A stretch of DNA of 64,000 bases from Naegleria gruberi (taxonomy: Eukaryota): NCBI GenBank assembly GCA_000004985.1, contig GG738922.1, one strand, 5' to 3'. Below, one piece after another: positions 5,566 through 43,767 of the stretch (its first letter is position 1; each line of letters opens with the position of its first letter). The notes below the pieces were generated by a model. That model worked only from the letters and a program-made list of their open reading frames with translations. It was not told the origin of the DNA and did not search any database. Both the position numbers and the translations under genes were made by a program.

Positions 5566-6354
5566 ATGTCTAAAAATCCACCTTCATCTTCACCAACACA
5601 ACAACTCCAACCCTATGCCCAATCCAAATTGGATATCTCTGGTTCATGTGTTGTTTGTTCAATAGCCTACACAATCAATTCAAAACTCTCACAAGAAAAA
5701 AAACCACAAGTACCCATCGAAAAATTTCTTCAAACAGCAATCAAACATAAATTCTTCTCTACCAAAGGACATGGCATTCACTCGAAAGGAAGTGCAAATC
5801 TTGGAAGGTTATTTGGAAAAGTAGAGTGGGGATTCTTTGGAAATTCTCAAGAGGAAGACGAATTTTCAGATGACGACGATGAAATAGATCCACAATGTAG
5901 GAAGAGACAATTCTTTGATTGTGAAAAGGATTCGTATAGAGATGGACCTGAACTGATTAGAGAAAAATTGAGAGAGGCAGGAGGTTATGTTGTGGTTGGT
6001 GTGAGATCGTGCATGAGTTCGATGAGTAGGGCAACCACTCATGCAGTAGTTGTGCTTGGAATTGATGATTCGAATAGAGTAACTATTGCAGATTCTTATT
6101 CACATTTTACAAAAAGAAATGAACCTAATGCAATGTTTCCTTATGGAAAACCAAATTGGGAATTTTCACCTGGAATTTATACAGTTGAGTGGAGTGAATT
6201 TGATGCATCTTGGAATTCAAGAGATGATTATGCAGGAGAGGATGATTTGGAAAATGATGAAGCATTTTCAGATTTTAATGTTAAAGAGGAAGGATTCAGA
6301 TTTTGGATGATTATTAAACATGACCACAAGTTAATTTCCAAAAATTGTAAATAA
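5566..6354 (+). CDS. hypothetical protein with possible papain-fold (C39-like) Cys/His motifs
   Basis: 262-aa ORF. GSCVVCSIAYT (candidate nucleophile Cys) and THAVVVLGIDDSNRVTIADSY (His-strand then Asp) resemble Peptidase_C39-like/BtrH-like cores. An acidic linker lies between them. Confidence 0.4.
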   Translation: MSKNPPSSSPTQQLQPYAQSKLDISGSCVVCSIAYTINSKLSQEKKPQVPIEKFLQTAIKHKFFSTKGHGIHSKGSANLGRLFGKVEWGFFGNSQEEDEFSDDDDEIDPQCRKRQFFDCEKDSYRDGPELIREKLREAGGYVVVGVRSCMSSMSRATTHAVVVLGIDDSNRVTIADSYSHFTKRNEPNAMFPYGKPNWEFSPGIYTVEWSEFDASWNSRDDYAGEDDLENDEAFSDFNVKEEGFRFWMIIKHDHKLISKNCK

Positions 6355-6513
6355 AAAGTTTATGGAATAATTTATTAAGGTTGTAAACTCTATAATACCC
6401 AGGTTGACCTATCGAATATGTTTCTAAAGTCAATGAACTGTGAACTTACCATAGTTCATAGTTAGTTTTACAACACAATTCAATAATAAAAATTCAAAAA
6501 TTCAAAAAAAAAA

Positions 6514-7296
6514 ATGGATCTAAACTACTACGATCACTACATCAACAAGGAGAATGGTTCCTATGTGGTCTGGCGAGATTTGACCTTCAATAACCAATCC
6601 ACCTTTGACATTATCAATTTCGGCCTCTCGGAAAAGAAGTTACAATTATCTGATGATACAACTCATCAATTCCGAAGAAATTTAAATGAATTTTCTCTCT
6701 CTGCAGCCTTTAATAAGGTTCCCCAACGTACGAATCCGATAGTTAATGGAGAATCCGATCAGAAGAGAGTTTCTCTCTATATTGAAAATTGCCACTATCA
6801 AATATTCGATTTTTCCAAACAATATTTCAAGAGAATTGTTTTTGAAAATTGTTCAAATTGTGAAATTTATTTAGGAAAAACATTTGGTGGATATGAATTC
6901 AGTAATTGTTCCAATCTTACTATTCAATTTACTAAAAATGTTGAGAATTTGAGTACTATTCTAGAGGATTCTAAATTCATTTCCATTATTTTCCATTTTA
7001 AATTATCAGAAATGAATGAAATGAGAATAGTTTCGACTAATTTATTTGGAGTCAAAGTCATGTATCAGAGTGATCCCTCATCAAAGAGAAAAAACGATTC
7101 AATTGTAAATATTAATCATTCAACTTATGAATTTGTAAATTTGGATCAAATTGGAATTTCCAATCGATTTGTAGAGATTACAAAAAAACAATTACAATCA
7201 AATTTACAATCAAATACTTTTCATAGAAAATTCTTTCACGATTCATTGAATGATATTAACATTATTACACAATTCTCACATGACTCTGATGAATAA
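6514..7296 (+). CDS. hypothetical protein
   Basis: 260-aa ORF with no motifs I recognise. It is tightly spaced between flanking genes on the same strand. Confidence 0.35.
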   Translation: MDLNYYDHYINKENGSYVVWRDLTFNNQSTFDIINFGLSEKKLQLSDDTTHQFRRNLNEFSLSAAFNKVPQRTNPIVNGESDQKRVSLYIENCHYQIFDFSKQYFKRIVFENCSNCEIYLGKTFGGYEFSNCSNLTIQFTKNVENLSTILEDSKFISIIFHFKLSEMNEMRIVSTNLFGVKVMYQSDPSSKRKNDSIVNINHSTYEFVNLDQIGISNRFVEITKKQLQSNLQSNTFHRKFFHDSLNDINIITQFSHDSDE

Positions 7297-7476
7297 TTCC
7301 CTTTCAATACCGTTCAGTACTATTTAACCTTTACAAAAAAATGTATTTAAATATTTAAATGTTTGTATTTTAAAAAAAAATGTAAATAATTCAATGCTAG
7401 AATTTACCTCAATTTCCAAACCAACAACCTTCAAGTGTTCAATATTCAATATTTAATTAATTCAATTTATTAAAAA

Positions 7477-9066
7477 ATGTTTCCACTCATAAAAAGCCTT
7501 TCCGATATTCAAGCTTGTTTTTCTTCGGCAATTAACCAACAAGAAGATGTCCATCATCTTCATACAAAATCAAACTCTATTATCGGAGGCTTTTCTAACA
7601 ATAATTTAATGGATCAATTCAAGATTGAACGTGATGGTGGTTACATCTTTATCAAATATAAACATGCTATATCGATGAAAGATACTTTTCCTGATCCGAA
7701 TGATGAATTTCTATCTGCAGAGGAACGTTTGAATTATCAACTCAGAAGGGAATGTAGAGGAATTGTATTTCGGAATGATCAAGATGATGATGAAGTAAAT
7801 ATTCAGCAGGAAAATATACAAAATGATGAAAAGAAGGTGAAAGGAAGAATCATTTCGAGAAAGTTTCACAAGTTTTTCAATATTAATGAGAGGGAGGAGA
7901 GTAATGTGGAGAGTATAAATTGGAGAAGAGGTTTTATTGTGATGGAAAAGATGGATGGATCATTGGTTTCGCCACTGAGGATTATTCGAAACGATGATTT
8001 GAATGATGGGATAGAAGATTCGAATAGAGTGTGGACATTTACTTCAATGTTGGGATTTACAGAAACTGGACAAGCTGTGGATGAGTTCATCTATCAAGAA
8101 ATGGAGGGAAGAAAGAGAGACAAATTATTCGAATTGTGTGAATATTGTGAAGAGAGTGGAATAACTCCATTATTTGAATTTTGTTCAAAGGAAAACAAGG
8201 TTGTTATTGAACATGAAAAGACAAGTTTAATCCTTTTGGCATTTAGAAATATAGAATCTGGAGAATATATGTCCTTCAAAGATACTGTTAACACTCTCAA
8301 CAAGTTCAATAACCCGGTTCCTATTGTAAAACTGTGGAAGGAATATCCTAATGGATTGAAAGGAGTAGAGGATGCAAACAAGCTCTTGAAGGAAATTTAT
8401 GCCCAAAAGAATGTTGAAGGATATGTCATTAGATTTTATGAAGGTGACATGTATAAGGTAAAGACCACATGGTACACAAGCTTGCATGGATTGGAAACTA
8501 CAGGAAAGTTTATTAGAGATCGACACGTTATTAAGGGAATTTTGGAGAATAATGTTGATGATATCATTTCTAGTTCCTTCTTTAACGGAGAGGAAAAGAA
8601 GAGGAAAGCTCTTCAATTATTCAGAGATGAAGTTGAAAGAAGGATACTCCTTAAAATTGCTGAAACCACAAAGGAATTGAAGGAGAAATCAATTGATGAC
8701 ATTTCACCAGATTCAATCACTGGTAAATTTTACTATTATCTCACTTCAGAGCATCCACAAGAAGCTATCAACAATTCAGATCTCATAACATCCGTATACT
8801 ATTCATTCCTCATTGAATATTTTAAGCTTAATGGAAGAGAATTCGATAGACACCGAAAATTATTCTACAAGTATCTCTCTATTGATTTCTCAGTCATGAA
8901 ACCTTACCATTTCACACATGAAGGAATTTTATCAGAACCAAGCAGCAGCAGCACTCCACCTAAAAAACAAGCACAACCACCAAGATATGCCGCTTCCAAA
9001 AACGATTCCACAAACCAATCATCAAACTCTGCAAAACCATCAGTTGACAAGAAGAAACGCAAGTAA
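7477..9066 (+). CDS. ATP-dependent RNA ligase, T4 Rnl1 family, with basic C-terminal tail
   Basis: Near-collinear motif matches to T4 RNA ligase 1. These are ECRGIVF, KFFNINE, motif I VMEKMDGSLVS (KxDGSL lysine-adenylate site), PLFEFCSKENKVVIEHEKTSLILLAFRNIESGEYMSF, motif IV NVEGYVIRF, and motif V KVKTTWYTSLH. The C-terminal S/K-rich tail ends KKKRK, a likely NLS. Confidence 0.8.
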   Translation: MFPLIKSLSDIQACFSSAINQQEDVHHLHTKSNSIIGGFSNNNLMDQFKIERDGGYIFIKYKHAISMKDTFPDPNDEFLSAEERLNYQLRRECRGIVFRNDQDDDEVNIQQENIQNDEKKVKGRIISRKFHKFFNINEREESNVESINWRRGFIVMEKMDGSLVSPLRIIRNDDLNDGIEDSNRVWTFTSMLGFTETGQAVDEFIYQEMEGRKRDKLFELCEYCEESGITPLFEFCSKENKVVIEHEKTSLILLAFRNIESGEYMSFKDTVNTLNKFNNPVPIVKLWKEYPNGLKGVEDANKLLKEIYAQKNVEGYVIRFYEGDMYKVKTTWYTSLHGLETTGKFIRDRHVIKGILENNVDDIISSSFFNGEEKKRKALQLFRDEVERRILLKIAETTKELKEKSIDDISPDSITGKFYYYLTSEHPQEAINNSDLITSVYYSFLIEYFKLNGREFDRHRKLFYKYLSIDFSVMKPYHFTHEGILSEPSSSSTPPKKQAQPPRYAASKNDSTNQSSNSAKPSVDKKKRK

Positions 9067-9097
9067 TGAACTCCCATTGTAAACACTTTAAAAAAAA

Positions 9098-9952
9098 ATG
9101 CACCATCACAAACCACTGTTCCCACTCGAAAACCTTCCCTCACAAGTTGTATCACACTTCCTGATGAATAATAAAAAGTTACAAGAGGAGAGAATCGAGT
9201 GGATAGAATCAGAGACGAGAAAAATTGATGAATTTACAGAAAAAATTACAAAACACACTTTACTTATCCCGACTACGAATGGTGATGATCAAAAAGCACA
9301 AGAAAAGATTATTAAATTAAATGTTGGTGGAAGTGTTTTCACTACCAATTTGAAAACATTGCTGAATGAAAAGGATACATTCTTTAGTGGATTTTTTAGT
9401 GATCGATTCTTACCACAAATACAAAAGGTGGAAAGTGAAAGTGGAGTAGAGGATGTCTATTTCATTGACAGGAATGGAAAGAATTTTTCATTAATTTTGG
9501 ATCATTTGCGAGGACATAAAATTGGACCAAAGATTCAAAATTTGACTGGAATTGAATTATTTGAATTTGTGGAAGATGTTGCTTTCTATCAAGTTCGCTC
9601 TATTTATCCTTTATTGAATGATGAATCTAAGGAAATGTTAAGGGAACATTTTTCAATTGAGTTGGAGGAAGCACCTAAAGTGAAAGAAACAATACCAATT
9701 GCAAATAATAGACTAAAGCTTACATCACATGCTTTAGCGAATATTCCTCAAGAGTATAAGAGAATGGTGTTGGGCGAAACTTTACATCCTTTTGTTCTCG
9801 AATTGGAACCTACAAACGCCGGCAAGATTACAGGAATGCTTCTAGAAATGGAAACAAACATGATCTTGAATTGGATTGAGAATGATGATGAATTGAAGAA
9901 GATTGTTGAACAAGCAGTTACAGTTTTAAAAGGGAGTTCTTTATATAATTAA
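9098..9952 (+). CDS. KCTD-type BTB/T1 domain protein with C-terminal PABP-type MLLE (PABC) domain
   Basis: T1/BTB: IIKLNVGGSVFTTNLKTLL...VYFIDRNGKNFSLILDHLRGHKI. MLLE: LGETLHPFVLELEPTNAGKITGMLLEMETNMILNWIENDDELKKIVEQAVTVLK, containing the KITGMLLEM hallmark. Confidence 0.75.
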   Translation: MHHHKPLFPLENLPSQVVSHFLMNNKKLQEERIEWIESETRKIDEFTEKITKHTLLIPTTNGDDQKAQEKIIKLNVGGSVFTTNLKTLLNEKDTFFSGFFSDRFLPQIQKVESESGVEDVYFIDRNGKNFSLILDHLRGHKIGPKIQNLTGIELFEFVEDVAFYQVRSIYPLLNDESKEMLREHFSIELEEAPKVKETIPIANNRLKLTSHALANIPQEYKRMVLGETLHPFVLELEPTNAGKITGMLLEMETNMILNWIENDDELKKIVEQAVTVLKGSSLYN

Positions 9953-9978
9953 TTATTTATCATATACTTGAATAAACT

Positions 9979-12900
9979 TTATTTTTTATCATAAACTTGC
10001 ACAAACTCAGTCTTACTTCTTCCAAAGCATTCAGGAGAATACATTTCTTCCATATAGGTTGAAGGTGCTACAAACGAACCTAAAGTAGTAGCTCTGCAAA
10101 TATAGCTGTAAACATGTGTGCCTTCATATAAAATTCTTGCAAATGCTTCAACTCTTTCATCTCTAATATTTTGATTTTCGAACCATTTGAAATAATGGTT
10201 ATTTGCCAATTCATTTTCGTTACCCCCATTTCCAAAATTAGTGAGCTGTGTATCGATTTCTGGATTGACAACTTCTAAACCTGCTGGCAGTTTATCAACA
10301 AGAGCAACATTATATCTTCTAGTAGGATTACATATTGTAATATTAACTCTGACCAATTCGCCTGACTTCACCTTCCATGTCTTGGTATTCTTATCAAACT
10401 TGACATCGTCAGGATTGGTGATTGCTTCATATACTCTAGAAATTGAGAATCCTCTATCTAAAGATTTGAGAGTAAATTCTTGAGGAGTGTAAGATAGAGC
10501 AATTCTATAATAAAGTCTTCCAGTACCATTCTTTGTCAAGAGGAATGATTTCTTTGAGTCATTTTCATCTGGATTGATGACTTCCTTATTAATATCAGCT
10601 CTTGGAACAAAAGCAGTTACCGGTAATGATGTAATCTTCTTTTCTCTACTTCTTCCTTTCCAAGATTGATTGCCCATAAAGAAAGTCTCCTCTGGCCTTG
10701 TAGAATCAACAAGCCATGTATTAACATTCATATCTGGAACTTCCTTCTCGAATATCTTGAAATAATCGGTGAGGGAAATGAGACAGATAGAGTTTTCTTG
10801 AGTATTATACCAACGACCATATCTATTTGCATTTCTGGCAGCCAACAGGCTTCTTACCAATTTTTGGATAATATCACTACTATCTTCTCTATCAATTTCC
10901 ATTAAACATCCCAAAACAACAGCATCAGTTCTTGTATTTGAATGCAGCATGACCATTTGTGCAAGTTCATTATCTTCATATCTAGTGATAAAGTGTGCAT
11001 AGATACCAGAGTCAATTGTGACATTTTCCTTAAAGTATGACTTGATGGCTTCCAACCATTGATAAACTGAAATCTTTTCATTGATGAATTTTGCAAAGAA
11101 ACCCTTCTTCTCTTCAACTTGTTCCTTCTTACATCTGTGAATAGACATTGCAAGATAAGCAGCAGATTCTGGATTCAATTCTTGAGTCAACTCTGTTAGG
11201 GTATTGTAGTGGTCAAGAATACCTTCACACAAGGAAATTACCTGTTCCTTGTCAGTTTCACTATCAGCTAACAATGAGAGAATATAAAAAGCGTATGCTT
11301 TGATAGTGTCTTTAACAGATCTTGGCCAAATAAATCCAAAGAAGAATAAACTTGAAATATTCTTCAAAATGGATTTTGTTCTGGACAGTATTTGATCTGG
11401 AATTTTGTATCCTTCAGATTTACATTTGGCAAAACAAAAAGCAACATGGCATGTCAAGAATGGATCTCCAATCAAATTATTACTCCAATAAGAGAAGGCA
11501 CCATCATATCTTTGACGCTCAAATAATCTGGCAAGATTGGTATCAATGAAAGTGTCAATCTCTTCTCTTCCAGAAATGTCCATCAATTTTTTGAGTTCCT
11601 CAGGTGTGTAGAATTGCAAAATCATTTCCTTCATGGAAACAATACCTAAAAGCTTTGAGGCAATTTGTTCATTACATTCATATGGATATGAGTAGAGATA
11701 AATGAGAGAATCAGTCAATGTTGAAAGGGCTGTTGTGGAGGTACTAACACTAAATTCACCGAAATGAGCCAAGATATTCTTTGATGGAAGTGAAATTGGT
11801 TGTAATACATTATCATTAGTTTCACTAACATCTCCATAAGTTGCAAAAGCCTCATTAGTTGCTGGAGTGAAAATTTTAAAGTCATTCTTTACAGCATCAG
11901 ACCATCCAACCATTTCGTCAGCAATGCCTTGTTTTTCAGGATTCTTAGCAACAGCTCTAACTACTCTAACTCCAATATTGATAAGAGCCTTACCACATTT
12001 GAGAACTTGAACTGGAATTCTAACTTCTTTTCTTCCTTGAGCTGGAATAACCACTGAAAATCCCTTCTTTCGTTGATTCTTGTTCTTTCCATTGAAAATT
12101 CTGAGATTTGTTACTTGGCAAACGAGTGATAGTGTCAAATCTGAATCTGTTTGATTTTGTAGAATATATGTCAAATCACACAAATCGCCATAATTCAAAA
12201 ATCTTGGAAGGGATGGTCTTACGGCAATAGGTAAATTGGTTGTAATTGCAGAACTACCAATACCAATTAAATCTTCTTTGGCATTCACTACAGCAGTTAC
12301 TTTGAATTTGGTGAGTGCATCAGTCAATTTGAAATCAAGTGTTATAGATCCATTTTCATCCGTTTGAGCGAATCCAATAAATGCAGCATCTGGTTTGAAA
12401 TTATTTCTTATTTGGAATACATCTTTTCTGTCATTCATTGATGGCATTGCACAACCACGACAACCACCACATATAGCACTGCTACTACTGCTACAAGTAC
12501 ATTCACATTCATTACAACTATGTTTTCTACAACAAGAAAACGAAGGAAGGAATAAACAAGCTGCCTTCTTATGAAATCTGACGCTTTGACAAGACATGTC
12601 ACAACATTGATTTTCCAAATCATCTAAAACTTGAATTTGTCGCCCGGACCCGTCATACCCTGCCCTATTTGATAATCTGAGTGATGTTTGAGTTTGCTCC
12701 ATGATTTCTGCATCTCGTTGGTTCTTTCTAGGGTAAAGCCAGTATCTCACGCTCTCCCTGATTGAATCACAATTGAAACTGCACGAATTATTAATTACAA
12801 ATAATGAGAGCGGGTCTTCAATCGAATGATTTGCCATATCCAATACAGCTTGATCACAAACAATCAAACAAACCTCAGAATTTGGTACAGTATTTCCTTG

Positions 12901-15900
12901 CTTATCTTTCACAAGAACAGTGACTGATGTCTCTTTTCCAGGGCTAAGTATAGTATCCTTTGGAGTGACAGTAACATCAAGCTCGTGGGAGCTCTTAGAA
13001 ATTTGAATATCAATAGATCCAGAAGCCTGAGTTGGATTAACTCTTGTCATGTCATCAATATCAACATAGTTCTCCTTACCAACCAATTGTACCTTAACTT
13101 GTATATTTGGTCTATATTCCTTCTTGATTGGAATTGTCAACTCGTACATTCCTACATCACTACTAATATCAAATGTTTCCTGTTTGATTAGCCTATTACA
13201 TAAAATCCAAGCGACTCCTGTACAATCACCACTAAAAGGAGAGACAATATAGACTTTGGCATCCTCTCCAGGTTGGTATTCATCATTTTCAAATTTGTTG
13301 GTAATTAGTTCGATACCAGATGTATTCAGAGATGCATAACCCTTTGATGTTAAATGTTCCCTATAGCCCAATTTACGAATAGGAATACTGCATCTGTTAA
13401 TACCTGATCTGTGCTTTGGTGTTTCATCTTCTTTTACTTCGCACAAAATGGCATACTCTCCATAAGCAGTGTCCTTGTTTTCCTCACTAAGCTTAAATGT
13501 ATGTAAAAGTGGTTGATCTTGTGAAGTGAGTTTGATTTCCTTGATTGGATTTGTGGTTTCCCATTTTTCATAACCCTTCGAATCGTAACCAAACTGAACT
13601 AATTTTACAGATATTGGAACGTCCTTCACCACCTTACCCTTGATATCTGTAACAACAAAGAAACAGTCGATATTTTCATCAGATTTCATAACTACTCTTT
13701 TAGTGCAACGAACTCCAATGTAATATTTGCAAGAGTGGAGAATAACCTCACTAGATGTTCTTTGTGTTTGTCTATTGATGTCCTGAACATTGGCATTGCA
13801 ACTGACACTAATAGGACTAGTTACCAACTTTTCTGGATCCCATAATATTATTGACAGATGATCATCACCATTGGAATCAGTTGTCCCATTAATATTACTG
13901 TAAAGTCTGGTTTTTGATTTTACACTATTTAAAAGTCTATCCAGTTTGTAATTATTTCTAAGATCTGTTTCTTGGAAAATGTAATTACTCCATCCTTCTG
14001 GGGTGAAATTTTTAGAAGTGGTATTGAGAGAATAGTTCACAGTTGAATTAGAGAGGCCTCCTCCACTATAATATTTGGCACTGACCTTATTGATGAACTT
14101 TTCACCAACAAACAAATCAACCTTTTCTGATGAAGGAATAATACTGCTACTGACAGTATATTCTCTAGTTCTAAACTCTTCAACTTTAAAAGTATGATTC
14201 CAGCATACTGTTTGCTGGAATCGTTGACCGTCAAAACTAAATGTGACTGAGTGAGAACCTAAATTAACATTATCTGGTATAACCAAATCCAAAACAAAAG
14301 ATCCATTCGCACTCAATTCAACTTTACCATCCAAGTATTTAACTCTGCTATTGTCGAAAACTTCATAAGTTACCTCTTTCTTACTTATTTGAGTGGTGAT
14401 TGCATAGGTACCATAATTCTCAGAATCCTTGTTAGTGTCGTATATCAAGTTTCTGATGAAACCCTTAATATGTACAGTTTCATTTGGCTTGTATAACCCA
14501 CGATCATTAAAAATGTGAGCAATATTAGTGTCTTGACGAGTTGAGTGAACATAAACGCTTGGATTAGTGTAGACAACTTGATCTGTGTCTTTAGATACAG
14601 CAATGGAAACGTGATGATAACCCTGTATGCATGTAAAATAGGCCATACCCCTTTCATTTGTTTTTTCAGTAACTGATCTAACGTCCATTGTTCTAGTCTC
14701 CTTATCAGGATAATAGTTCTTGGTGTCAAACATTGTTACTTCAGCATTGTCAACAGGTTTTCCCGTTGAGAAATCAGTTACAAATACACCTAATTTTTCT
14801 CCAGCGATACTCACAACATCGACACACAAATTTGAAACTTGCACCCATCTAGCTTGATATCCAGAAAATAATGAGTATAAAATTGATCTTTTTGGTTTGA
14901 AATGTACCAATACACTGCCTGTTTTTCCATTTTGAAGAAATTCTGGCAACATAATCTTGGTAGAAACAGTTCTGTCCTTTACAAAGTTTTCAGTTTGTAC
15001 TTTTTGATCAAAAACTTGCTTTCCAAAACTATGAGGTTTTCTTGGGTTCCAATCAAAATGTGCATAATTATCATAGGAATTAAAGAATGTTTTTGGAGCA
15101 AACTTTGGGTATACACATTCTTTGTACATTTCTATAGGATCAACTTGATTGATAATAACATGAGTTTCTTGAATATTTACAGAATCAAAGTAAAGAAATG
15201 GTTCATTGTTATCAAAAAGGCATGGTGGCATGACACTAAAGGTAGGGAGTGTCATGTTGAATTCCCTATCCTCACCTGAGACTTCGAAAGTGGCTGAATA
15301 ATCACTTTCCATGATTTGGTTATAAATATCTGGAACTCCTTTTAAAATTTTAACACTATATTTCTCCCTAGCGAGAGTATCACCTGCGATTATAATAGTA
15401 TTACCATCAGCTTTTACCTTGTAATTATTAAGGACTGGTTCAAGTTGAACAAATTTTTCAATGCTGTCTACCTTTTCCAAATCAATAGGATTGTTGAATC
15501 TGAATGTAAATGAGCAACCTGGATAAATTTCATTAAAGAAAAAATGTTTCTTTGGATAATGATCAGAAACTACCATTTTGGAATAGCCACGCACACCAGT
15601 GGATGTTTCATGAGTAGATACAAGTGGACCTTCCAAACTCTTGAATCCTGGTCTCAACCAAACACTCAAATATTCTCCTAATCCAATTTTACGATAATTC
15701 TTTCCAGCATGTAAAGTATCGTTTGCAACAAGTAACTTGATCCACATACATCTCTTTGGATCATGAACATTTTTGAGACTTCTGTAATACAAGTTATAAA
15801 CATATGGGAACTTTTTGGAATAATCTGTTTCTGCCAACATTTTGGAAATTATTGAGGTGTCTTCCAATAATTCCACACCAATTTTGTAGCTAGAAACTTT

Positions 15901-16800
15901 CATTTCCAACTTTTCTAAAACACTTTGCTTGTCAATATCTTGATCAAATTGGAAGAACATGAATGGGAGTTGAGAAATTGGAAAGCTGTTACCTGAAGGG
16001 ATACAACTGAGAATTCTAGCTGTTGGTGTCTTAAACGTTGCTGATAAATCATCTCCTAAAGTATGTCCATGCACGGACTTGGTCTTTTCTTTTATAACCT
16101 TGTAGGAAAACTCGGTTGATCTGTCAAATCTGAATCGAGGTTGAAACACTAAAGATTTAGTACCAATCCATTTCCACTTTCCTTCTTTAACATTTTCTGT
16201 TACTGGACTAATTTCAATAAAATCAATCTCTTCAAATGATTTAGTTTCTCCATCAAATTCTTCAATCATGTCATGACTAAATGTAATGGAAATGAATGGC
16301 ACAGATGCAACTTCTGAATTTTGTTTACCAGTTGGCACTGCTCTAACAATTCTAAACTTCTCTTCCTTCTTCTTTTCCAAAGCATTTTGAGCAAGTTGAT
16401 TTCCGATACTATTCACCATTTCATCAACTGCATTCACAGATTTTGGAGGAAATTCAATTTGATTTTTGACTTGGAAAGTACCAGGTTCTGGTGGTTTGAG
16501 AGTTTGTTCTCTGATCAGGTAATTTTCTTGAAGAGATTGTTCTTGATCCTGTTGATCCTTCATCAATTCTCCCAACAAGTTTTCCAAACTCTCCTCATCT
16601 AAATCTTCAATTTTAAATACTGAATCATCAATTATTTTGTTTTCTAGAGAGGCTTGTTCATCATGATCGGATGCAAATTGTTGATCATCATTCTCTCGGA
16701 TCAGAGCAGATACAACATCCTTGCTGTCTCCCTTCTTTACATGGAGAACCAATTGTTGATAATCGAGCAATTCGCTATCAATTTCTTCTTCAATCTTCAT
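9979..16800 (-). CDS. alpha-2-macroglobulin/TEP family large protein (2273 aa) with non-canonical thioester-like motif
   Basis: RNNFKPDAAF...GSITLDFKLTDALTKFKVTAVV matches the A2M core consensus R.xFPETW...PDSITTW. PYECNEQIASKLLG corresponds to the thioester region (CGEQ replaced by CNEQ). A Cys-rich block sits in the bait position. There is an acidic 400-aa N-terminal extension and no obvious signal peptide. Confidence 0.55.
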   Translation of the reverse strand: MKIEEEIDSELLDYQQLVLHVKKGDSKDVVSALIRENDDQQFASDHDEQASLENKIIDDSVFKIEDLDEESLENLLGELMKDQQDQEQSLQENYLIREQTLKPPEPGTFQVKNQIEFPPKSVNAVDEMVNSIGNQLAQNALEKKKEEKFRIVRAVPTGKQNSEVASVPFISITFSHDMIEEFDGETKSFEEIDFIEISPVTENVKEGKWKWIGTKSLVFQPRFRFDRSTEFSYKVIKEKTKSVHGHTLGDDLSATFKTPTARILSCIPSGNSFPISQLPFMFFQFDQDIDKQSVLEKLEMKVSSYKIGVELLEDTSIISKMLAETDYSKKFPYVYNLYYRSLKNVHDPKRCMWIKLLVANDTLHAGKNYRKIGLGEYLSVWLRPGFKSLEGPLVSTHETSTGVRGYSKMVVSDHYPKKHFFFNEIYPGCSFTFRFNNPIDLEKVDSIEKFVQLEPVLNNYKVKADGNTIIIAGDTLAREKYSVKILKGVPDIYNQIMESDYSATFEVSGEDREFNMTLPTFSVMPPCLFDNNEPFLYFDSVNIQETHVIINQVDPIEMYKECVYPKFAPKTFFNSYDNYAHFDWNPRKPHSFGKQVFDQKVQTENFVKDRTVSTKIMLPEFLQNGKTGSVLVHFKPKRSILYSLFSGYQARWVQVSNLCVDVVSIAGEKLGVFVTDFSTGKPVDNAEVTMFDTKNYYPDKETRTMDVRSVTEKTNERGMAYFTCIQGYHHVSIAVSKDTDQVVYTNPSVYVHSTRQDTNIAHIFNDRGLYKPNETVHIKGFIRNLIYDTNKDSENYGTYAITTQISKKEVTYEVFDNSRVKYLDGKVELSANGSFVLDLVIPDNVNLGSHSVTFSFDGQRFQQTVCWNHTFKVEEFRTREYTVSSSIIPSSEKVDLFVGEKFINKVSAKYYSGGGLSNSTVNYSLNTTSKNFTPEGWSNYIFQETDLRNNYKLDRLLNSVKSKTRLYSNINGTTDSNGDDHLSIILWDPEKLVTSPISVSCNANVQDINRQTQRTSSEVILHSCKYYIGVRCTKRVVMKSDENIDCFFVVTDIKGKVVKDVPISVKLVQFGYDSKGYEKWETTNPIKEIKLTSQDQPLLHTFKLSEENKDTAYGEYAILCEVKEDETPKHRSGINRCSIPIRKLGYREHLTSKGYASLNTSGIELITNKFENDEYQPGEDAKVYIVSPFSGDCTGVAWILCNRLIKQETFDISSDVGMYELTIPIKKEYRPNIQVKVQLVGKENYVDIDDMTRVNPTQASGSIDIQISKSSHELDVTVTPKDTILSPGKETSVTVLVKDKQGNTVPNSEVCLIVCDQAVLDMANHSIEDPLSLFVINNSCSFNCDSIRESVRYWLYPRKNQRDAEIMEQTQTSLRLSNRAGYDGSGRQIQVLDDLENQCCDMSCQSVRFHKKAACLFLPSFSCCRKHSCNECECTCSSSSSAICGGCRGCAMPSMNDRKDVFQIRNNFKPDAAFIGFAQTDENGSITLDFKLTDALTKFKVTAVVNAKEDLIGIGSSAITTNLPIAVRPSLPRFLNYGDLCDLTYILQNQTDSDLTLSLVCQVTNLRIFNGKNKNQRKKGFSVVIPAQGRKEVRIPVQVLKCGKALINIGVRVVRAVAKNPEKQGIADEMVGWSDAVKNDFKIFTPATNEAFATYGDVSETNDNVLQPISLPSKNILAHFGEFSVSTSTTALSTLTDSLIYLYSYPYECNEQIASKLLGIVSMKEMILQFYTPEELKKLMDISGREEIDTFIDTNLARLFERQRYDGAFSYWSNNLIGDPFLTCHVAFCFAKCKSEGYKIPDQILSRTKSILKNISSLFFFGFIWPRSVKDTIKAYAFYILSLLADSETDKEQVISLCEGILDHYNTLTELTQELNPESAAYLAMSIHRCKKEQVEEKKGFFAKFINEKISVYQWLEAIKSYFKENVTIDSGIYAHFITRYEDNELAQMVMLHSNTRTDAVVLGCLMEIDREDSSDIIQKLVRSLLAARNANRYGRWYNTQENSICLISLTDYFKIFEKEVPDMNVNTWLVDSTRPEETFFMGNQSWKGRSREKKITSLPVTAFVPRADINKEVINPDENDSKKSFLLTKNGTGRLYYRIALSYTPQEFTLKSLDRGFSISRVYEAITNPDDVKFDKNTKTWKVKSGELVRVNITICNPTRRYNVALVDKLPAGLEVVNPEIDTQLTNFGNGGNENELANNHYFKWFENQNIRDERVEAFARILYEGTHVYSYICRATTLGSFVAPSTYMEEMYSPECFGRSKTEFVQVYDKK

Positions 16801-17201: not shown

Positions 17202-17282
17202 CTGCAGAAGGTGGGATTTGAACCCACGAAGCTTGCACAGTAGAACTTGAGTCTACCCCCTTTGACCACTCGGGAACCCCTG
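17202..17282 (-). tRNA. tRNA-Leu (anticodon CAA), class II with long variable arm
   Basis: The reverse complement reads GCAGGGGTTCCCGAGTGGTCAAAGGGGGTAGACTCAAGTTCTACTGTGCAAGCTTCGTGGGTTCAAATCCCACCTTCTGCA. The anticodon stem is GTAGA/TCTAC with loop CTCAAGT, and the T-arm is GTGGG-TTCAAAT-CCCAC. The acceptor stem has two G.U pairs. An oligo-T run follows the 3' end. Confidence 0.8.
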
Positions 17283-17398
17283 CTTCACATTAAAAATGAA
17301 AATAAACCAAATTTATCACATTTCGGAATGTTCGGCAAAGCATTTAATGTCAAATAGCTCATTATTTCAAGATTTGAAATGATAAAATAGTTTGATAT

Positions 17399-19059
17399 TT
17401 ATTTGAAACACTTGTTGACAATATTCATAAAGAATCCACCAACTGGAAGAATATAACGAGTAATAATATTATCACCAAGGGTGGTGAGCAAGAGATTTCT
17501 CTTAGTATCAGAGAATGGTGGATATCTGAGATCCAAATCAAGCCAGTACTTCTTCTTCAAGACAGACTTTTGGTGAGTGAAAGTATTGAAAGAGGCATCA
17601 CCATGATAAGCTCCCATACCACTGTGTCCAACACCACCAAATGGAAGATGTTCTTCACCAACTTGGAGAACACATTCATTGATACCAACAGCACCAGATT
17701 GAGTAACCTTCATGATTCTTTCAACCAATTGTTGATTCTTTGAATAAATATACAATGCCAATGGCTTAGATCTTTGATTAATGAATTTCAAACCAGCATC
17801 AAGATCTTTCAAAACGCTTGGATATTCAGTTGATTTAGATTCTCCATAAATAATGATTGGCAAAAGAGGTCCGAAAAGTTCTTCTTGCATGACAATATCA
17901 TTTTCCATATCAGGATTGAGGATCAAGGTTGGTTGTACGTACTTGGCTGATTCATCTGCATTACCACCATAGATAACCTTATCCTTGACTTGATCAATAA
18001 TTGCCTTAAGACGTTTTACATGTGTACCTGTGACAATTCTGGAATAGTCTGGAGATTTGGATGGATCTTCACCATACATTTTAGTGATGGCTTCCTTGAG
18101 GGCTGGAATGAATTTGTCAGCAATTCTACCATCCAACAAGACATAATCTGGAGCAACACAAGTTTGTCCATTATTGAATGTCTTACCCCAGGCAATTCTG
18201 TTGGCAGCAACTGAAATATCAATATCCTTGTCAATAATGAGTGGTGATTTACCTCCAAGTTCTATTAAATATTATCCACAATTCCAATAATTTAAATCAT
18301 TTGTTATTGAAATTTGCATTATGTGTGATAGTTCATTAATATCAACTTTGATCAACTAAACTTACCCAAAGTTACAGGAGTCAAATGTTCAGCAGCAGCA
18401 CGCATAACAATCTTTCCGACTCTAATGCTGCCAGTGTAGAAAATGTGATCATATGGTTCCTTCAACAAGTTGGTTGTCACAGTTGCATCACCTTCAATGA
18501 CACGAACATATTTCTCATCAAAATATTTAGGAATTAGTTTAGCAAAGGTAGAGGAAACATTTGGAGAAACTTCGGAAGGTTTCAAAATAACCAAATTACC
18601 AGCTGCCAAAGCACCAGAAAGTGGAATAGCCAACAAACTGATTGGATAATTCCATGGAGCAATAATCAGAACAACACCCAAAGGTTCCTTTCTAATAAAG
18701 CCTTCTGAAGGAAGATTGGCAGGATTGACAATATTAACATATTCATCCTTCATCAATCTCTTCAAATCACCCTTCAAGAATTGAGCAGATCCCACAGACA
18801 AACCAACTTCAATGGTTTTTAATGGTTCTGTTTGTCCCAAATCCTTGACTTGAGCTTCCTTCCAATCCTCCTTATTTTCCTCGAACATGGCAATAAACTT
18901 GTCCAATTGTTCTTCTCTCCATTCACGATCTCTAGTGATACCAGTTTGAAAAGTAGCCTTCATTGATTCAACCAATTCGGCATATGGTCTATCACTCTTA
19001 TCATCAACAATAACATTGTTTTGTTCCTTGTTTTGAAACACTGCAGATCCTCCGATCAT
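17399..19059 (-). CDS. aldehyde dehydrogenase, ALDH3 family (2 exons)
   Basis: Exon 1 is 19059..18366 and exon 2 is 18261..17399. The intron is phase 1 with a GTAAGT donor and AG acceptor. The splice joins PVTL|ELGGKSP to regenerate the canonical ALDH motif. Other ALDH signatures are EEHLPFGGVGHSGMG and ELFGPLLPII. Confidence 0.85.
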
Positions 19060-29357: not shown

Positions 29358-30122
29358 TTAATTCTTCTTCTTTCTGGTATTGGAAAGTGGATAGAGAGGT
29401 TCAGGATATTTTGCCAGATAATTCTTGACATATTCATCCAATTCTCCAGCTTTTTTCATTTCCAATAATTCAACAAGAGTATCACCATGACAATGACATG
29501 ATGCGTCCACTTTACACCAACATCCCAAAACTTTTCCATCAAGCTCATCCAAATCTTTCAATAAATCATCTCTTCTCAAGATGTAATCTCTATATTTCTG
29601 ACAAGCCACTTCTGCACTTCCACCACAAGTAGATACAGGATATGGATTTCCCCACTTGGATTGTGGCAAACTCCAACCACCCTTATTCAAAGCTCTTCCA
29701 ATATAAACTTCACAATCCTGAACAACTTTACCATCCTTTCTTTGTAACTTGACTACACTAGTTGTTCTTTTCAAAGATAAAGGTGTTAGTGAGGATGATA
29801 CTTTTGGAGTGCTTGTTGAAATTTCTCCCAAAGTTGTTGTTGTTATTGTTTGTAATGCTGGTTTCTGAGCAAAGAACTTGGATTTCTTCACTTGTTGTTG
29901 TTGAGTAGTCTTACCAGATGATGATGATGATTCCGATTCGGAGGTAGCAGTAGATTTAAATGGTCGCTTTTGATTTGCTGATTTTACATTATTTTGCTTC
30001 TGTTGTTGCTGAGAAGTTGTACTTGATGAAGAGGAAGTAGATGATGATGATGAACTTTGATTGGCAGAAGTAGTACCAGCAGCAGGAACCGAAAAGAAAT
30101 TAAAGGATCGTTGTTGAGACAT
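29358..30122 (-). CDS. S/T/Q-rich protein with C-terminal DUF4326-like Cys/His domain
   Basis: C-terminal LGCWCKVDASCHCHGDTLVELL resembles the DUF4326 signature (CWC...CHGDVL), which is usually found in bacteria and phage. The N-terminal half is low-complexity Ser/Thr/Gln. Confidence 0.5.
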   Translation of the reverse strand: MSQQRSFNFFSVPAAGTTSANQSSSSSSTSSSSSTTSQQQQKQNNVKSANQKRPFKSTATSESESSSSSGKTTQQQQVKKSKFFAQKPALQTITTTTLGEISTSTPKVSSSLTPLSLKRTTSVVKLQRKDGKVVQDCEVYIGRALNKGGWSLPQSKWGNPYPVSTCGGSAEVACQKYRDYILRRDDLLKDLDELDGKVLGCWCKVDASCHCHGDTLVELLEMKKAGELDEYVKNYLAKYPEPLYPLSNTRKKKN

Positions 30123-43419: not shown

Positions 43420-43492
43420 TAAAAGAACCCTCCCCCTGGTGGGCTCGAACCACCGACCTGCAGATTAACAGTCTGACGCTCTACCGACTGAG
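43420..43492 (-). tRNA. tRNA-Asn (anticodon GTT)
   Basis: The reverse complement reads TCCCCCTTAGCTCAGTCGGTAGAGCGTCAGACTGTTAATCTGCAGGTCGGTGGTTCGAGCCCACCAGGGGGAG. The acceptor stem is TCCCCCT/AGGGGGA. The anticodon loop CTGTTAA and T-arm GGTGGTTCGAGCCCACC match eukaryotic tRNA-Asn. T-runs lie downstream. Confidence 0.85.
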
Positions 43493-43767
43493 CTAAGGGG
43501 GAATACATGAAATAGAAAAATAATCTTTATACAAATCATAAATCTAACATAGGTCACTGCCATGCTTAACGTGTTTCTTTATTACTTGAAAGGAGAAATT
43601 ATTATTGCTTTTACTTACATATTACAATTTCTGTTTCCATTTGTTGTAAAATCAATCCACTTATTTTACATTTGCATCACGTTTGTTTTTGTGTGCAAAC
43701 ACGTTTGTTGCAACAAAAAATATAAATAAACTAAGCAAAAAATAGTAGAAAATGTATTTAAATCTAG

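Follow-up and report, generated by a model that had tools for sequence, protein, structure and literature searches.

A native Rnl1-family RNA ligase gene of Naegleria gruberi with a truncated database model and a clade-specific change at motif Ia

To our knowledge, Naegleria holds the largest known RNA ligase collection of any eukaryote, with Rnl5 as the sole member characterised. The inventory of Unciuleac & Shuman (2015, RNA 21:824; PMC4408790) lists seven Rnl1-family members in Naegleria gruberi, together with five Rnl2, one Rnl5 (NgrRnl, characterised there) and two RtcB, and proposes that the paralogues specialise by type of RNA damage or by pathway. The seven Rnl1 proteins were published as accessions, without sequence analysis or biochemistry (PMC4408790), and a literature search found no later characterisation of any of them. 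Here we describe one of the seven, EFC37058.1 (XP_002669802.1, NAEGRDRAFT_75245), the product of an open reading frame (ORF) on a 64,000-nucleotide stretch of N. gruberi contig GG738922.1 (assembly GCA_000004985.1), hereafter the window. A preliminary description of this DNA, made from the letters alone, treated the gene as a surprise and placed its host among the Amoebozoa; N. gruberi is a heterolobosean (Heterolobosea, Discoba), and its stand-alone Rnl1 genes, EFC37058.1 included, have been in print since 2015, in the same paper whose two RtcB answer the question then raised of whether this genome encodes that enzyme. Our additions are modest: a corrected start, covariation of motif Ia with Lys60, a clade-specific tail and PUA fusions among relatives.

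The window protein is 22-31% identical to T4 Rnl1 (gene 63), from which it differs in having Met for the motif Ia lysine, a new Lys60, extra loops, a C-terminal domain of ~150 rather than ~120 residues, and a disordered linker that ends in a polybasic tail; T4 Rnl1 is moreover a phage counter-defence gene, whereas the window gene is a cellular eukaryotic one with paralogues. The ligase domain of fungal and kinetoplastid Trl1 (Rnl6 clade; PDB 6N0T) is fused to a kinase and a cyclic phosphodiesterase (CPD), has a distinct C-terminal domain and needs a 2'-PO4 (PMC6379707), and the window protein has none of the Trl1 features that could be tested. With NgrRnl, an Rnl5 nick-sealing ligase (PDB 5COT), it shares organism, superfamily and lysyl-AMP chemistry. 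Stand-alone Rnl1 proteins are also found in Amoebozoa (Physarum, Copromyxa, Soliformovum, Cochliopodium, Cavostelium and Pelomyxa); these are likewise eukaryotic and match Pfam PF09511, at about 30-33% identity to the window protein, but they keep the motif Ia lysine, have Asn or Ser at position 60, and carry no polybasic tail.

Our preferred reading, held with a probability of about 0.72, is that the product is an ATP-dependent member of the Rnl1 family of RNA ligases, native to its host and likely sealing breaks in structured RNA. Its overall layout, with residues (aa) counted from the start given here, is:

7477..9066, plus strand: complete intron-less coding sequence of an N. gruberi Rnl1-family RNA ligase, 529 aa plus stop
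7477..7608, plus strand: 44 N-terminal codons left out of the GenBank model, with the 'FP' motif Phe2, Pro3
7477..8487, plus strand: adenylyltransferase domain, aa 1-337, comprising an Rnl1-type N-terminal sub-domain and the nucleotidyltransferase core
7777..7836, plus strand: acidic low-complexity insert in the N-terminal sub-domain, aa 101-120, DQDDDEVNIQQENIQNDEKK
8488..8946, plus strand: all-helical C-terminal domain of T4 Rnl1 type, aa 338-490, with Asp361/Asp362
8947..9063, plus strand: disordered Ser/Pro/Asn-rich linker and polybasic tail DKKKRK, pLDDT <50

That a stand-alone Rnl1-type ligase is encoded in a eukaryotic nuclear gene, as the preliminary description had it, is demonstrated by profile and sequence searches alike. 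Pfam PF09511 (RNA_lig_T4_1) matches aa 92-333 over its entire length (profile positions 1-227 of 227) with E=2.2e-32 and a score of 113.2 bits against a curated cutoff of 28.3, and is the sole Pfam domain in the product, as it is in the orthologues; T4 Rnl1 chains 2C5U, 5TT6 and 9DO4 of the Protein Data Bank (PDB) match with E~1e-15 in phmmer. The NCBIfam model TIGR02308, which describes the T4 RnlA equivalog, scores 99 bits, so far below its cutoff of 242.25 that the protein is, on sequence, a divergent member of the family and no T4 RnlA equivalog or near-copy of the phage enzyme. The family itself is a large one: at 50% identity it counts 2,971 representatives. Two hallmarks of membership are present: the helical C-terminal domain of T4 Rnl1 type, which defines the family in Shuman's classification, and an N-terminal sub-domain of Rnl1 type that holds the equivalents of T4 Arg54, Lys75 and Phe77. 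The domain layout of Rnl5 (an appended N-terminal domain and a missing C-terminal domain), the core and C-terminal domain of Rnl2 type (T4 Rnl2 / REL1) and the Trl1-specific C-terminal domain were each looked for in the window protein and not found. The fold is that of Rnl1, and comparison with the individual ligase types gave the following values (two columns, unlabelled):

T4 Rnl1: 28.3; 348 of 367
Trl1-LIG: 17.5-18.1; about 261-276
Rnl3: about 13; about 251-255
NgrRnl: 11.2; 202
Rnl2: about 9.5; 169-179

Conservation of the catalytic residues was read from three independent alignments to T4 Rnl1 (phmmer, BLASTP and MAFFT), of which the latter two used a T4 sequence that agrees with the PDB chain segments and with published numbering. 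All motif strings quoted in the preliminary description are present at verified coordinates:

7750..7764, plus strand: ECRGI, with Arg94 as counterpart of T4 Arg54 (MAFFT register)
7870..7881, plus strand: KFFN, with Lys132/Phe133/Phe134 as counterparts of T4 Lys75/Phe76/Phe77 (roles in PMC6379707)
7948..7959, plus strand: motif I, KMDG, with Lys158, the predicted AMP-accepting nucleophile, as counterpart of T4 Lys99 (alignments)
8041..8055, plus strand: motif Ia region, TSMLG, with Met191 at the position of T4 Lys119 (three alignments)
8173..8181, plus strand: motif III, FEF, with Glu234 as counterpart of T4 Glu159, invariant
8416..8427, plus strand: motif IV, EGYV, with Glu314/Gly315 as counterparts of T4 Glu227/Gly228, invariant
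8455..8475, plus strand: motif V, KVKTTWY (its KVK string at 8455-8463), with Lys327/Lys329/Tyr333 as counterparts of T4 Lys240/Lys242/Tyr246

Lys158 stands opposite T4 Lys99 in all three alignments, which also keep in register motifs III, IV and V and the N-terminal sub-domain residues that correspond to Arg54, Lys75 and Phe77, and the Lys, Asp and Gly of motif I are invariant in 93 of 93 family sequences. In the MAFFT alignment Tyr37, Asp101 and Gly102 of T4 correspond to Tyr61, Asp160 and Gly161 and, in the C-terminal domain, Asp272/273 to Asp361/362. Every T4 position mapped in this way is invariant or nearly so in the family, with the lone exception of motif Ia Lys119. The preliminary description's match to T4 Rnl1 'motif for motif' therefore holds for motifs I, III, IV and V and for the residues of the N-terminal sub-domain, all of them in register, but fails at motif Ia, where the lysine is replaced by Met191.

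From these features we infer the catalytic activity, substrate class and localisation of the protein. In step 1, Lys158, presumably helped by Lys327 and Lys329 of motif V, Glu234 of motif III and Glu314 of motif IV, would attack ATP at its alpha-phosphate and so give ligase-AMP, with Arg94 and Lys132 predicted to contact the gamma-phosphate, as T4 Arg54 does (PMC6379707). In step 2 the AMP would be handed to an RNA 5'-phosphate to give AppRNA, and in step 3 attack by the RNA 3'-OH would seal the break. The C-terminal domain of T4 Rnl1 gives that enzyme specificity for breaks in tRNA anticodon loops. Because the window protein has a helical C-terminal domain of this type and lacks the Trl1 type, its most likely substrates would be 3'-OH/5'-PO4 breaks in structured RNA such as tRNA, sealed after the action of separately encoded end-healing enzymes. 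An RNA repair activity, as yet uncharacterised, is a reasonable reading of such a sequence.

Alternatively, the protein might be a Trl1-like tRNA-splicing ligase that joins 2'-PO4 exons, its kinase and cyclic phosphodiesterase being supplied by other genes. Eukaryotic 5'-PO4 tRNA ligases do carry an Rnl1-like adenylyltransferase domain (PMC6379707), healing and sealing enzymes are separate in Branchiostoma (cited in PMC4408790), and a polybasic tail would fit a nuclear enzyme. The window protein's C-terminal domain is nonetheless of T4 rather than Trl1 type, and we regard a Trl1-like role as improbable. The preliminary description's statement that kinase and CPD domains are absent agrees with what was found: Pfam detected none in the ligase ORF or in the flanking ORFs, and all frames of 6000-10500 are free of P-loop motifs. 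A Trl1 gene continued in further exons nearby was also considered and rejected, the ORF being closed by a stop codon and followed 31 bp on by a gene of BTB+MLLE type, with no P-loop in any frame.

The native status of the gene is demonstrated by its composition and its relatives. The ORF has a GC content of 0.346 and a GC3 of 0.319, indistinguishable from the rest of the window, and its relative synonymous codon usage correlates with that of the window's other ORFs at r=0.91, so that the comparison with neighbouring genes called for at the outset shows a match. Those neighbours are eukaryotic (RGS/GPCR-like, alpha-2-macroglobulin, aldehyde dehydrogenase, LRR, Myb, chromodomain, CDC20, kinesin, ABC and MFS genes), and the ligase is flanked directly by a CAP_C-like and a BTB+MLLE ORF. 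Homologues in N. lovaniensis and N. fowleri are about 48-52% identical; a second, paralogous lineage comprises EFC41021.1 of N. gruberi and a protein of N. lovaniensis, and Willaertia magna holds two copies. A neighbour-joining (NJ) tree built from 97 sequences over 386 columns grouped the orthologues of the three Naegleria species with a bootstrap of 0.99 and the paralogue clade with 0.93; support was 1.00 for a clade of 13 members that takes in every heterolobosean protein together with metagenomic relatives.

The horizontal acquisition that the preliminary description had raised finds no sign here as a recent event. Had the gene come lately from a phage, a bacterium or a giant virus, or had the contig been a contaminant, this would suit a family that is overwhelmingly bacterial and phage in distribution (1,579 phage records match, as do many bacterial genomes) and patchy among eukaryotes, in Heterolobosea and Amoebozoa. 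However, the top bacterial matches (a Legionella metagenome-assembled genome and Reyranella) and the top phage match (Caulobacter phage Cr30) are each only ~32% identical, and the closest non-heterolobosean relative, which is metagenomic, sits on a contig with eukaryote-type genes. Given these identities, the native codon usage, the eukaryotic neighbours and the well-supported Naegleria/Willaertia orthologue and paralogue clades, we consider recent transfer or contamination excluded by the sequence evidence, scarcely credible as an origin and by some way the least likely of the alternatives weighed here, and take the gene to have been vertically inherited in Naegleria. An ancient transfer into the ancestor of these amoebae is possible, since the deep branches are poorly supported (bootstrap 0.15-0.17); a pan-eukaryotic clade of Heterolobosea and Amoebozoa does appear in the NJ topology, at these same low values, and we make no claim for it.

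The closest N. gruberi paralogue of EFC37058.1 is EFC41021.1 (NAEGRDRAFT_80833, P0007), a protein of 613 aa that matches PF09511 and shares the Met and Lys60 features described below. The seven accessions that PMC4408790 gives for Rnl1 do not include it, and N. gruberi may on this count have at least eight Rnl1-type genes.

At motif Ia no basic residue is present, and all three alignments (phmmer, BLASTP, MAFFT) place Met191 opposite T4 Lys119. This loss coincides with a second change:

7654..7656, plus strand: Lys60, a clade-specific lysine, Ser36 in T4 and Asn in most other members

The eukaryote-type clade is exactly the set of sequences without the motif Ia lysine, which every member has replaced, mostly by Met and in a few cases by Gln or Ile; outside it, Lys or Arg stands there in nearly all of the ~220 classified sequences, with a non-basic residue in only a few scattered ones. 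Within the clade, Lys60 accompanies the missing motif Ia lysine without exception. Further clade-specific changes are Phe153 and Tyr308 (Arg or Lys elsewhere), and the C-terminal domain of the clade has extra basic residues at Arg383 and Arg/Lys389. The literature searched held no mention of the motif Ia Met / Lys60 replacement.

The motif Ia side chain has a signature role in related ligases, contacting the ATP gamma-phosphate and, as proposed, binding the RNA 5'-PO4 in step 2, in Trl1 (PMC6379707) and likewise in MthRnl (PMC4797309). Lys60 adjoins Tyr61, the counterpart of T4 Tyr37. Wang and colleagues reportedly found in 2006 that Tyr37 touches the gamma-phosphate, and in 2003 that a K119A change in T4 Rnl1 blocks ligation as a whole but leaves steps 1 and 3 intact. 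A 'lysine swap', in which the role of motif Ia has moved to Lys60, is a plausible hypothesis and, if functional, would be an example of a rewired RNA-adenylylation step in a classic ligase. It is also conceivable that Met191 changes or disables RNA adenylylation; the protein might then employ Lys60 as a substitute, recognise another kind of 5' end, seal only RNA pre-adenylylated by a different enzyme, or be chiefly an RNA-binding or adenylylating protein rather than a complete ligase. The strict pairing of the two changes and the known contacts of motif Ia would favour such an altered enzyme. On the other side, the remaining catalytic residues, including Arg94, whose T4 equivalent Arg54 we take to be a second step-2 residue, are kept in both paralogue lineages and in several genera, which suggests selection for a complete ligase; and two bacterial-type sequences have independently acquired Met at motif Ia with Asp rather than Lys at position 60, so that the lysine may be dispensable. 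We therefore think it unlikely that step 2 is altered or the enzyme only partial, while ranking this ahead of a Trl1-like role and, further behind, of recent transfer. A complete Rnl1-type ligase remains the preferred reading.

The KKKRK tail reported in the preliminary description is real, ends at 9063 and is conserved among relatives. A polybasic C-terminus is found in 7/7 named heterolobosean members and in several metagenomic members of the clade, and is missing from amoebozoan, bacterial and phage members; we found no mention of this clade-specificity in the literature searched. By its sequence DKKKRK could be a signal for nuclear localisation or a tail that binds RNA, and its role would probably be nuclear or nucleolar targeting or added RNA affinity. 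Two metagenomic proteins (P0014 and P0122, metagenome/Logan) that fall in or beside the clade carry Pre-PUA and PUA RNA-binding domains C-terminal of the ligase, and these modules hint at targets among structured RNAs, for instance tRNA or rRNA. The papers searched do not mention this architecture, though no search was aimed at it. One might tentatively suppose that the heterolobosean-type clade, having lost the motif Ia lysine, has either passed its role to Lys60 or adopted a different step 2 (for instance on another 5' end or on pre-adenylylated RNA). Taken with the polybasic tail that sets the clade apart and the PUA modules of close relatives, this would make it a eukaryote-specific nuclear RNA-repair subtype distinct from the phage enzyme.

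Other fusions were seen in further long relatives: in P0163, P0177 and P0135 the Rnl1 domain is joined either to protein kinase domains, in one case together with FNIP repeats, or to a Ras/Roc GTPase domain. Judging by domain content, some protists may have RNA ligases tied to signalling.

The ORF at 7477..9066 opens with ATG and has no internal stops in the ORF list, and its product is 100% identical to the 485-aa N. gruberi 'predicted protein' (P0001) over 485 aa. The GenBank/RefSeq model starts at Met45 (window position 7609, MDQFK). The longer N-terminus, MFPLIKSLSDI, is matched by MFPTIKTYTDI in the orthologues of N. lovaniensis and N. fowleri (P0002, P0003); Phe2 and Pro3 are near invariant across 93 Rnl1-family members, bacterial ones included; and the 44-residue segment is present in the full-length gene call of a second assembly (P0121, 531 aa, 99% identical to the window product). 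On this sequence evidence the deposited model is truncated at its N-terminus by 44 conserved residues, a truncation of which the literature searched held no mention. Since this N-terminus belongs to the conserved fold, a role as organellar presequence is improbable. With its start corrected, clear orthologues, among them that of the pathogenic N. fowleri, and an active-site peculiarity open to testing, EFC37058.1 is a well-delimited target for biochemistry. The acidic insert DQDDDEVNIQQENIQNDEKK is specific to N. gruberi, its orthologues in N. lovaniensis and N. fowleri having no such segment; it is predicted to be disordered and is kept in a second N. gruberi strain.

Several other features of the window deserve mention. 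The gene 31 bp downstream of the ligase (9098-9952, plus strand), which has no demonstrated connection with the ligase, encodes a BTB/POZ domain of KCTD type and a C-terminal MLLE (PABC) domain, a combination that looked unusual; the MLLE module binds PAM2 motifs in partners of poly(A)-binding protein. Beyond it, on the minus strand at 9979-16800, lies an intron-less ORF of 2,273 aa that resembles alpha-2-macroglobulin (A2M), with the bacterial MG10 domain (PF17973, E=2e-28) as top domain, and whose product could, from this match, be a bacterial-type A2M in a protist. An aldehyde dehydrogenase at 17399-19059 (minus strand) is spread over two ORFs, matching Pfam profile positions 29-234 and 279-461 and presumably parted by an intron; it is adjoined by a tRNA-Leu(CAA) gene at 17203-17283 (minus strand), and a tRNA-Asn(GTT) gene lies at 43429-43503 (minus strand). 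The ORF at 29358-30122 (minus strand) has a DUF4326 domain (E=2e-19).
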